From: Candidatus Enterousia sp.
GTDB taxonomy: Bacteria > Pseudomonadota > Alphaproteobacteria > Rs-D84
Direction: 5' to 3'
Assembly (NCBI GenBank): GCA_045133095.1
Contig: JBGUTP010000007.1
Coordinates: 7,669 to 71,668, forward strand
DNA: 64,000 bases
The position numbers were made by a program, and so were the translations under genes. The notes beneath the pieces are model-generated. The model was not told the origin of the DNA. It saw nothing but the letters and a program-made list of their open reading frames with translations, and made no database searches. Below are positions 5,019-6,452 of the stretch, in pieces (the stretch's first letter is position 1; the number at the start of each line of letters is the position of its first letter).

Positions 5019-5138
5019 GATTTGAACCCGACCAGAGGGTTCGACAAGGAGTAGATTTGACAAGTTTGACGCAGTCAAATCGTCACGACTGTCCCGCAGG
5101 TGTAAAAAAACACCAAGGGAATCCTTCTGGATGCGCCA
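5019..5138 (+). repeat. tRNA-linked structured repeat, copy 1, ending in a 20-nt duplicate of the tRNA-Arg 3' end
   Basis: GAGGGTTCGA (5035-5044) and ATCCTTCTGGATGCGCCA (5121-5138) match tRNA 4932-4941 and 4942-4959, separated by a 76-nt insert with two hairpins. Confidence 0.85.
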
Positions 5139-5145
5139 CGAATTC

Positions 5146-5170
5146 AAACACCGCCATTTGGCGGTGTTTT
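5146..5170. terminator. Bidirectional-type hairpin terminator
   Basis: AAACACCGCCA-TT-TGGCGGTGTTTT. Confidence 0.7.
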
Positions 5171-5191
5171 AATTTGTGCTGCACATCCCAG

Positions 5192-5311
5192 GATTTTGAA
5201 CCCGACCAGAGGGTTCGACAATGAGTAAACGAAAACAAGCCCCCGGCGCAGTTTGAGTGCTAACGACTGCCCCGCAGGTGTAAAAACACCAAGGGAATCC
5301 TTGCTGCCCCA
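5192..5311 (+). repeat. tRNA-linked structured repeat, copy 2
   Basis: Shares TTTGAACCCGACCAGAGGGTTCGACAA and ACGACTGYCCCGCAGGTGT(A)nCACCAAGGGAATCCTT with copy 1; different middle and different tail (GCTGCCCCA). Confidence 0.85.
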
Positions 5312-5398
5312 ATCAGTATAAAAACCTAATAAATTTTTATGTTGTAAAAATACACAAAATCCAATAAAATGATACAGAGATAAAACAGAGAGAAAATC

Positions 5399-6187
5399 AT
5401 GATAAAATCTTTCACCGCCGCCCTTGTTATCACGCTGATTCACGCATCTGCCATGGCGTTTCAGGGATTTGGCGATAACAGATCTTGCTATTTTGAAGAC
5501 CACAAACGTGACAGTTACTGGTACTGTGGCGCCCAGGAAAACAGATGCGCCGGACGCAAAATGGGTAAGAAGCACAACCGCTCATATCAACTGCACGGCG
5601 ACTCATTTACCTATGACGGCAAGAAATATTATTGTTGCAACGGAACACCAACACAGGTCGGTCGTTATGAAGATGCACACAACAACAAAGACTGGCTCAA
5701 AACGAACGAAAGCGTTACAATTGAACTGGACGGTGGTGGCAAATGCACATATACAAAAAAAGTTAATGTCTGTGGCGAAGAAGAATCAACCCCATGCAAC
5801 AAACCAACGAATTGCGAAGATGGCAAGATATTACGCAATGGTACATGCACACATCCATGCCTATCAGACAGCGAAATCACCGCATATGAAAGTTCGACAT
5901 CAAACACATGCGTCCAATGCCCCACAACGCTATATCAGGGAATTAAGAAAAGCAGTAACAGCAACACCGATGCCCTGTGCATAAAATGCGACCCAACATT
6001 ACAATTCTGGGATTCTGAAAACAAAACATGCATTTCAAAAAGTTCACTTCCCAAAGCAACCAGGGAGGCACTAAAAAAATGCTGGCGTTGCGATCAGGAT
6101 TATGTTGCCGAATGCATTCGTGCTTTTTCGGTTAATTCTGGCTCTGCCCCCAGTGAAGAAATCAAAAGCCACTGTGATATAAAATAA
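5399..6187 (+). CDS. Secreted Cys-rich protein of unknown function
   Basis: Signal peptide MIKSFTAALVITLIHASAMA; about 20 Cys in 262 aa including CxxC pairs (CVQC, CIKC, CWRC). Confidence 0.75.
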   Translation: MIKSFTAALVITLIHASAMAFQGFGDNRSCYFEDHKRDSYWYCGAQENRCAGRKMGKKHNRSYQLHGDSFTYDGKKYYCCNGTPTQVGRYEDAHNNKDWLKTNESVTIELDGGGKCTYTKKVNVCGEEESTPCNKPTNCEDGKILRNGTCTHPCLSDSEITAYESSTSNTCVQCPTTLYQGIKKSSNSNTDALCIKCDPTLQFWDSENKTCISKSSLPKATREALKKCWRCDQDYVAECIRAFSVNSGSAPSEEIKSHCDIK

Positions 6188-6189
6188 TA

Positions 6190-6216
6190 AAAAACCGCCG
6201 CATTTGCGACGGTTTT
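6190..6216. terminator. Hairpin terminator after Cys-rich gene
   Basis: AAAAACCGCCGC-ATTT-GCGACGGTTTT. Confidence 0.6.
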
Positions 6217-6232
6217 AAATTTCTGCTCAGGG

Positions 6233-6452
6233 CGACAATGAGTAGATTTTGCAAACACAGTGCAGCGAAATCGTCACGAATGCCACACAGCCGACACAAA
6301 GTGTCGTGCGAGTGACACAGAGTAGATTTTGCAAACACAGTGCAGCGAAATCGTCACGAATGCCCCGCAGGTTTGGCGCATTTCGTGCCAAACCGAGGGA
6401 AACTTTCGAACCTGACAAAAGAATTTTGTCGTTCGAATCCACAGTCCCACCG
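6233..6452 (+). repeat. Structured repeat copies 3 and 4 in tandem, plus a T-arm-like tail
   Basis: Perfect 45-nt direct repeat at 6240-6284 and 6320-6364; shares GAGTA-GATTT..AAATC-GTCACGA-TG-CCCGCAGG with copy 1; tail TTCGAAC-hairpin-GTTCGAATCC..CCCACC. Confidence 0.85.

Follow-up and report, generated by a model that had tools for sequence, protein, structure and literature searches.

The window analysed here, a stretch of 64,000 nucleotides (nt) from Candidatus Enterousia sp. (assembly GCA_045133095.1, contig JBGUTP010000007.1), carries between positions 4883 and 6575 two convergent tRNA genes, tRNA-Arg(ACG) on the + strand and tRNA-Pro(TGG) on the - strand, and between these genes four copies of a short hairpin-forming module, all on the + strand. 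The module had been noticed in a preceding reading of the letters of this DNA (the sequence-only reading), in which its compensatory base changes were taken as the sign of a selected fold. The copies are herein called cores A to D, and each core forms, together with adjoining scaffold sequences that resemble tRNA ends, one repeat unit. These units represent a new and very large family of the type of the tRNA-linked repeats (TLRs) of Escherichia coli, with a discrete mobile hairpin core; how the core moves and what it may do as RNA is what we infer further below. The features of the locus are as follows (CM, covariance model; ORF, open reading frame; aa, amino acids).

4883-4959, + strand: tRNA-Arg(ACG) with encoded CCA, the anchor of the first array (ARAGORN; Rfam tRNA, 67 bits).
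4960-4999, + strand: spacer and Rho-independent terminator T1 of tRNA-Arg, a GC hairpin followed by a T run, in an arrangement that recurs in relatives.
5000-5043, + strand: left scaffold of unit A, consisting of the hairpin CCACGT/ACGTGG, an inverted T-loop-like ATTTGAACCC, a spacer and GAGGGTTCG.
5044-5119, + strand: core A (copy 1 of the sequence-only reading), type I-a (CM match, 99.6 bits).
5120-5138, + strand: exact copy of the final 19 nt of tRNA-Arg (AATCC...GCGCCA; repeat D5), or 20 nt if the shared G at 5119 is counted.
5139-5217, + strand: terminator T2 and left scaffold of unit B, the latter with a degenerate inverted tRNA-Arg 3' end (GCACATCCCAGGATTTTGAACCC), a spacer and GGGTTCG.
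5218-5295, + strand: core B (copy 2), type I-b, with the alternative arm 1 stem AACGAAAAC...GTTTGAGTGCT (CM match, 83 bits; alignment).
5296-5316, + strand: degenerate tRNA-like 3' end of unit B, AATCCTTGCTGCCCCAATCAG (from comparison with tRNA tails).
5399-6187, + strand: ORF for a 262-aa Cys-rich secreted protein, between the two arrays (ORF list).
6222-6234, + strand: degenerate reverse-complement copy of the tRNA-Pro(TGG) 3' end (TCTGCTCAGGGCG), present in relatives as the exact TGGTCGGGGCG.
6235-6314, + strand: core C (copy 3) of type I-a, whose stems CAC:GTG and GC:GC are compensated (nhmmer match).
6315-6399, + strand: core D (copy 4), directly abutting core C head to tail without a spacer (CM match, 74 bits).
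6400-6452, + strand: rest of the split inverted tRNA-Pro copy (AAACTTTCGAACC), a hairpin and the degenerate arm GTTCGAATCCACAGTCCCACCG.
6499-6575, - strand: tRNA-Pro(TGG), the anchor of the second array, convergent with the cores (ARAGORN; Rfam).

In unit A, GAGGGTTCG of the left scaffold is a direct copy of the 5' strand of the tRNA-Arg T-stem followed by TTCG, and the hairpin GAACCC/GGGTTC is present in the computed fold of this scaffold. Core A is organized in the order of ACAAGGAGTA, arm 1 (GATTTGAC...GTCAAATC), GTCACGACTG and arm 2 (CCC GCA GGTGT...ACACC AA GGG). The tRNA-end copy that follows is exact over 19-20 nt in unit A (5119-5138) and degenerate in units B, C and D. Though located 3' of tRNA-Arg, unit B terminates like tRNA-Gln(CTG) (GCTGCCCCAA) rather than like tRNA-Arg; the closest sequence to its AATCCTTGCTGCCCCAATCAG is the tRNA-Gln(CTG) end GCTGCCCCAACCA, and this likeness suggests that whole units or their ends may have been transferred between tRNA loci. 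The Cys-rich protein matched no Pfam family, and its ORF was rejected as the cargo cassette of an element since the arrays on its two sides belong to two convergent tRNAs and no single element encloses it. The + strand of the contig that contains the window (C7 of the window's genome, G000) has a strong and uniform GC skew of about -0.2 over 160 kb, and by this skew replication meets tRNA-Arg(ACG) head-on and runs co-directionally with tRNA-Pro(TGG).

The same organization was recognized at related loci. The 5' half of a unit consists of the tRNA, its terminator, a degenerate inverted copy of the ~25 terminal nt of the tRNA, a hairpin, and the 5' strand of the T-stem plus TTCG, and the 3' half consists of the core, AAT with the 3' strand of the T-stem, the 3' strand of the acceptor stem, CCA and a second terminator. 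The unit length is 160-199 nt, and exact downstream tRNA-end copies are most commonly 20 nt long; the final 11-20 nt of the tRNA remain exact also in units with a decayed T-stem part, and the inverted copy is recognisable in ~30% of units. Among 117 cores at 100 loci, 69 begin 55-92 nt 3' of a tRNA gene on the same strand, 15 belong to later units of arrays, 14 are convergent with tRNA-Pro(TGG), and three lie 600-1500 nt behind a tRNA gene, altogether 101 of the 109 assessable cores (~93%) being linked to tRNA; eight cores are without a nearby tRNA gene and another eight are at contig ends. More than 20 tRNA species carry the units.

This organization is that of the TLRs of E. coli, which were first described in 1978 and for which, to our knowledge, there is still no accepted origin or function. 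A total of 22 TLRs are located at ten E. coli loci, each terminating in the 18-19 nt with which the upstream tRNA or rRNA ends; their function is described as not known (PMC8144298). Both the E. coli TLRs (RtT/RttR of tyrT-tyrV, RF00391; the rrA/B/F small RNAs, or sRNAs, behind 5S rRNA) and the Enterousia units are placed immediately 3' of a stable-RNA gene and share its orientation, form one to several tandem units of ~170-180 nt, end in the final 18-20 nt of the upstream tRNA with the identity starting from the same T-loop position (between TTCG and AATCC), and include a degenerate inverted tRNA-end copy (GGATGAGAA-type) and a GGTTCGAC box 5' of a hairpin-rich core. Upon direct reading, the tyrV units were found to contain the inverted copy GGGGAAGGATGAGAAGC, GGTTCGAC, a hairpin-rich core and AATCCTTCCCCCACCACCA, and RtT to end in AATCC...CCA. 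In the window, units A and B are directly downstream of tRNA-Arg(ACG) and units C and D of tRNA-Pro(TGG), and the final 18-19 nt of the tRNA, the TLR end, are exact in unit A. The core sequence, however, is different: the RtT model (RF00391), which gave 133-138 bits on E. coli, had no match in the window (E<=10) or in six Enterousia loci (E<=1), indicating that the layout is common to both but the core family is not. In addition, the Enterousia units usually possess their own terminator each, a single core family serves more than 20 tRNAs in more than 100 species, and the core is demonstrably a separable insert, a property undescribed for the E. coli TLRs. The sequence-only reading was right as to the fold, but missed the tRNA 3'-end copies at every copy, the genus-wide family and the TLR layout.

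The presence of tRNA-end copies in G000 is not limited to this core family. A genuine downstream copy of the final 12 nt was identified for 14-15 of the 45 tRNAs (a screen with 2 mismatches gave 17, of which two or three are chance matches or a neighbouring tRNA gene), and most of these copies enclose other core types (for instance at C4:222589, tRNA-His; C7:100007, tRNA-Leu-CAA; C7:83776, tRNA-Pro-GGG; and C19:31505, tRNA-Gly-GCC), such as type II (GCCGCAGGCGAAAGGGGCCC-hairpin-GGGAATTACA), a longer His/Leu type and a terminator-less Glu/Gly type. The type II core and E. coli RtT have in common a GCC-GCA-GGC hairpin and a GAA(A/G)GG box.

The stems of the sequence-only reading were all found where it had placed them, when the four copies were checked and positions 4500-7000 were read: CCC GCA GG (6364-6371) pairs with CC GA GGG (6393-6399) in copy 4, CAC ACA GC (6284-6291) pairs with GC GA GTG (6308-6314) in copy 3, in which the extra T is at 6307, and the GATTT...AAATC stems are present at 5054-5081 and 6244-6272. 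The linkers GAGTA and GTCACGA(A/C)TG are invariant, as it had described. Since the four copies of the window correspond to three independent ones and are anecdotal by themselves, the fold was tested on a larger set, for which a covariance model (R1) of 92 positions was constructed from 21 copies and 116 further copies were found in the 100 related loci. Among the 111 distinct cores, in an alignment that was fitted to the model and in this respect favours structure, paired cells accounted for 88.2% against 65.6% in shuffles, and the covariation score was 0.541 against 0.170, both values being reached by 0 of 500 shuffles; slid controls stayed at or below 0.094. In separate lineages, the C:G middle pair of stem 1 is replaced by A:T or by G:C. 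Mutual information, calculated without using the model, recovered both helices and lengthened arm 1 downward through U:A, tandem G.A/A.G, G:C and U:A to a covarying CAAT-AATG pair. The strong covariation across relatives indicates that the fold is real, and the module fold is kept by selection, as had been claimed, rather than being the remnant of a decaying duplication. The module thus consists of two arms side by side, a long arm 1 with an AA/GCA internal loop and an arm 2 with an RCA/GA internal loop beneath a freely changing hairpin. The stem of arm 1 exists in two versions, I-a and I-b, with identical loop and linkers. The core is non-coding and ~65-100 bp in size (median 77).

Variable helices separated by fixed unpaired linkers, together with a UGA...GAA around arm 1 that is superficially hammerhead-core-like, would suit a self-cleaving ribozyme or a riboswitch-like cis element, one of the options of the sequence-only reading. 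However, a cmscan search of positions 4500-7000 on both strands against Rfam 15 (E<=10) detected the two tRNAs only, without any ribozyme or riboswitch family among the matches, the module lacks the CUGAUGA and GAAA boxes of the hammerhead, a terminator and not a regulated gene is located 3' of most copies, and the sequence alone indicates no cleavage site. The ribozyme option was dropped as most improbable.

The core was detected in 24 of 24, then 56 of 61 and then 104 of 108 sampled genomes of Candidatus Enterousia (by BLAST and then with the model R1), in copy numbers of 1 to 22 per genome across the genus, which in the literature is placed in the order Rs-D84 with genomes of ~0.75-1.0 Mb. 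Some sister genera of the family also carry the core, and other families of the order gave no core except for one weak match (E 1.4e-4). In the 1.08-Mb genome of the window itself, six model matches correspond to the window, the tRNA-Ser(GCT) locus and one further site. A pattern scan of 185,579 species genomes identified as hosts Candidatus Enterousia and metagenome-assembled genomes of gut Alphaproteobacteria from humans, chickens and ruminants; 20 pattern matches in other organisms were unconfirmed by nhmmer and were taken as chance.

The borders of the core could be determined exactly, as CG^ACAATGAGTA...CCGAGGG^A, where ^ represents the junctions. In a set of 191 distinct cores, CG closes the left flank and A opens the right one, the left 6-mers being GGTTCG (109), GGGGCG (23), CGAGGG in tandem copies (3) and GTRACG/GCAACG in nested copies (6), and the right flank being mostly AATCC. 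The usual insertion site is the T-loop GGTTCG^AATCC of a tRNA pseudo-copy. At tRNA-Pro(TGG), the site is GGGGCG^AAAGG on the opposite strand, and the core makes a clean break in a 25-nt inverted tRNA-Pro copy, TGGTCGGGGCG followed by AAAG(G)ATTCGAAC; copies 3 and 4 of the window represent the flipped core in such an inverted tRNA-Pro copy, head to tail. Tandem junctions of the type CGAGGG^AC were found in other loci too. One genome (G007) carries six 74-nt copies that differ from one another at 2 positions at most and are nested, antisense, within the linker AAAT^CGTNAC of other cores, the hosts comprising at least three unrelated ones. Upon deletion of these 74 nt in silico, a full-length type I-a unit is restored across the joint (nhmmer positions 1-89, E 3e-15), without any loss of bases and without target duplication or other repetition of sequence. 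Furthermore, cores that are 90-98% identical occur next to different tRNAs and between unrelated flanks, tRNA-Arg loci show free combination of left scaffolds with core types, and the identity of cores that different species carry at one and the same tRNA is only 71-91%, such cores often being of different subtype. The clean borders and the exact restoration of the host altogether indicate that the module is a discrete mobile DNA insert, located between G and A of CG^A(A/T) in one fixed orientation to the site.

Integrases of the P4 type leave direct repeats of the tRNA 3' end, and the units might accordingly be scars of repeated integration of islands or phages, in which the direct repeat would be the att core and the module an attP arm. 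The direct repeats found here cover 14-20 nt of the tRNA 3' end starting from the T-loop, as such integrases leave, and separate the units within arrays, and true integrase-bearing islands exist at some tRNAs of the window's genome. The arrays, however, have no integrase beside them, many core-rich genomes carry XerC/D only, and neither 50,697 phage records nor 2.9 million viral contigs contained the core. Compensation within stems is unexpected for double-stranded protein-binding arms, and more than 20 different tRNAs share the same core, which occurs in either orientation and also inside other cores. Little chance is left for scars as the origin of the units. What resembles a classical anticodon-loop integration scar, unlike the TLR units, is seen elsewhere in G000 (C21:74295-74560), where ~130 nt 3' of tRNA-Arg-CCG lies the 43-nt 3' half, from the anticodon stem to CCA, of another tRNA-Arg(CCG) allele, that of a relative (locus L016).

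Taken together, we consider the module, with a probability of roughly 0.6, to be a small mobile DNA insert residing in TLR scaffolds, its fold being under selection and probably acting as a folded single strand. Among the options of the sequence-only reading (a functional non-coding RNA, a ribozyme or a single-stranded DNA recombination substrate), the mobile element handled as a single strand fits best with the exact borders, and a role as RNA is possible besides. The core also inserts at its own regenerated right end, giving rise to head-to-tail pairs such as copies 3 and 4 of the window, and into the linker of other cores. Because 74 nt is too short for a double-stranded circle, the unit is probably handled as a folded single strand, either DNA or RNA that is copied back, by an enzyme acting in trans; such handling would account for two covarying arms with fixed linkers and ends. 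The GA common to both junctions is formally compatible with a 2-nt crossover, though a double-stranded circle of 74 bp is physically unlikely. Real tRNA genes would be spared because insertion there is presumably lethal, and by analogy with the E. coli TLRs, read-through of the tRNA terminator probably also transcribes the copies.

A number of observations weigh against the mobile insert, above all those on the enzyme. No recombinase gene is located within 3 kb of the arrays of the window. Among the 41 genomes of the genus, the Y1 HUH transposase (PF01797) is present in one and is absent from both the window's genome and G007, and TnpB is present in none (0/41). Many core-rich genomes hold just two Xer-type tyrosine recombinases, presumably XerC and XerD. 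A reverse transcriptase like that of diversity-generating retroelements is found in 16 of the 41 genomes, unlinked to copy number, and small serine recombinases in 37, of which the four examined are ordinary resolvases, three of them in restriction-modification islets. With respect to GC skew, the core strand is G-rich in 77 and C-rich in 74 locus/strand cases (53 and 48 at an absolute skew of >0.08), and this lack of bias argues against a lagging-strand template preference in the style of IS200/IS605; the suggestion of an HUH enzyme in the sequence-only reading is supported on neither count. The ORFs adjoining the burst copies of G007 were not transposase-like on inspection, which did not include a Pfam search. 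None of the candidates tried as the mover, the Y1 HUH transposase, TnpB, extra tyrosine recombinases, the reverse transcriptase and the serine recombinases, showed a convincing link. As to the copies themselves, a recent burst is seen in one genome only (G007), three of its six copies may be segmental duplicates, the origin of the tRNA-specific scaffolds is unexplained, and the tandem G.A motif and the invariant linkers suit a protein-binding RNA equally well.

The reverse transcriptase genes observed in six genomes of the genus (L156-L161) encode ~340-380 aa proteins starting with MK.YKNLWDEFIS.ENL.LAA, a start typical of enzymes of diversity-generating retroelements. Some of these genes are beside small secreted proteins, and one is located just past a tRNA-Arg TLR unit (L156). 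Two islets of G000, at tRNA-Val(GAC) (L299, C16:56000-64000) and tRNA-Lys(TTT) (L300, C4:27000-33000), contain resolvase-type serine recombinases and EcoRI-like adenine methylases, and the tRNA-Val islet contains in addition a GmrSD/HNH nuclease and a 562-aa protein with a weak integrase match.

The unit could, on the other hand, be chiefly a small stable RNA of the TLR type, generated by read-through, which mimics the tRNA 3' end and borrows its maturation signals, with arms and linkers that bind proteins or serve regulation and with mobility being incidental. This possibility, to which we give distinctly less weight, is compatible with the mobile insert. The dual-terminator layout has its match in the rrA/B/F sRNAs of E. 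coli, and a processing function has been proposed for TLR 3' ends (PMC8144298). In tRNA-Tyr units of six species, the core and the tRNA-end copy are both 91% identical, and beyond the units the identity is 67%, not alignable and near the 57-67% of unaligned flanks. The tandem G.A motif is located between covarying pairs, G.U exceeds A.C (~38 vs ~14) in well-covarying pairs on the sense strand of the core, and the final 11-20 nt of the tRNA stay exact despite T-stem decay. The excess of G.U mildly favours the sense strand as the strand of action, but the fold energies show no asymmetry, the sense strand being more stable in 44 cores and the antisense strand in 62, compared with 39 of 45 for sense in the tRNA control. 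The core is antisense to the tRNA at tRNA-Pro(TGG) and in nested copies, pairing of the T-stem across the insert is weak (3.3 of 5 pairs vs 2.8 in shuffles), the inverted copy is recognisable in the above-mentioned ~30% of units only, and no conserved promoter was seen. A metagenome scan yielded ordinary DNA contigs, which provided no evidence of a transcript.

Three narrower proposals for an RNA were rejected. Maintenance of a minihelix or T-arm was dismissed as the pairing of the T-stem across the insert exceeds that in shuffles only slightly. A minus-strand tRNA-like RNA with G3.U70 holds in tRNA-Arg contexts only, and the substitutions in the inverted copy (G>A 14 vs C>T 8) were not decisive for such an RNA. 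A mini-tmRNA, proposed from the GGTTCGAC box together with a frame in copy 2 that resembles a tag, was discarded because 2-nt indels between copies break the frame and a real tmRNA is located elsewhere. This tmRNA (G000 C21:77315-77670; ARAGORN) is permuted and in two pieces, with the tag AANDNVRLAMAA; the permuted two-piece form is usual in Alphaproteobacteria.

Insertion 3' of a short fixed motif, lack of target duplication and covarying arms are all found in the Enterousia core as in elements of the IS200/IS605 or REP/RAYT type. Like the PATEs (derived from IS200/IS605) and REP/REPIN elements (RAYT, Y1 HUH), the core is short and non-coding, forms subterminal hairpins with compensatory changes, inserts in one orientation and tends to insert into its own copies. 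It differs from them in that Y1 HUH is missing in 40 and TnpB in all 41 of the Enterousia genomes, no replication-strand bias exists, the two arms are unlike each other, and the copies are confined to tRNA-end pseudo-copies instead of being scattered over intergenic regions. With integron attC sites and Xer-dependent elements of the CTX type, which are folded single-strand substrates, it shares covarying stems with few fixed unpaired bases, insertion at a fixed dinucleotide without target duplication, and arrays at one anchor; but an IntI gene is absent beside the arrays, the core consensus contains no GTTRRRY boxes by eye, no dif-like XerC/XerD arms were seen in the core, and most units are geneless.

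Further elements were observed within or beside the units of this family. In tRNA-Gln-CTG arrays of two other genomes (L051 and L037), an ORF for a methyltransferase-like protein of 298 aa or a histidine-phosphatase-like protein of 171 aa is located between type I units. Both ORFs have the same inverted repeat GAGTTCGAAAGT...ACTTTCGAACT, an upstream TGTGGTATAAT promoter and the same ~60-nt 3' end with the pseudo-tRNA end ACAACCA, and from these sequences the two genes look like exchangeable gene cassettes. A small element with terminal inverted repeats, ACGAGAATRCRCAATTAGAAAAAT...ATTTTTNTTATTGYGTATCGAGG, is located in L053, in unit 2 of L051 and behind tRNA-Ser-GGA of G000 (C23:9168-9350), immediately 3' of GGGAAT, where type I cores or scaffolds have their right border.

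Several hundred copies of the core are present in more than 100 species with genomes of ~1 Mb, and the size of the family suffices to prove a conserved fold, to fix the exact borders and to catch clean insertion in three kinds of site. As a more speculative extension, the cores of TLRs may represent a new kind of transposon, tiny, built of hairpins, generating no target duplication and homing to the T-loop GGTTCG^AATCC through a folded single strand, and the scaffolds, those of E. coli included, would be harmless landing pads that it left or made. If this is true, the TLRs would gain an origin, and an as yet undiscovered recombination activity would be expected in bacteria with very small genomes. 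The question of the TLRs is then divided into two, one on the activity that cuts and joins CG^A in T-loop-like DNA, and the other on the folded module as a working RNA. If the enzyme is found, it would provide a new site-specific tool with very short cargo; without the enzyme, the module is still a well-defined new RNA/DNA motif for libraries of the Rfam type. The core family serves as a marker for annotation of tRNA flanks in gut Alphaproteobacteria.

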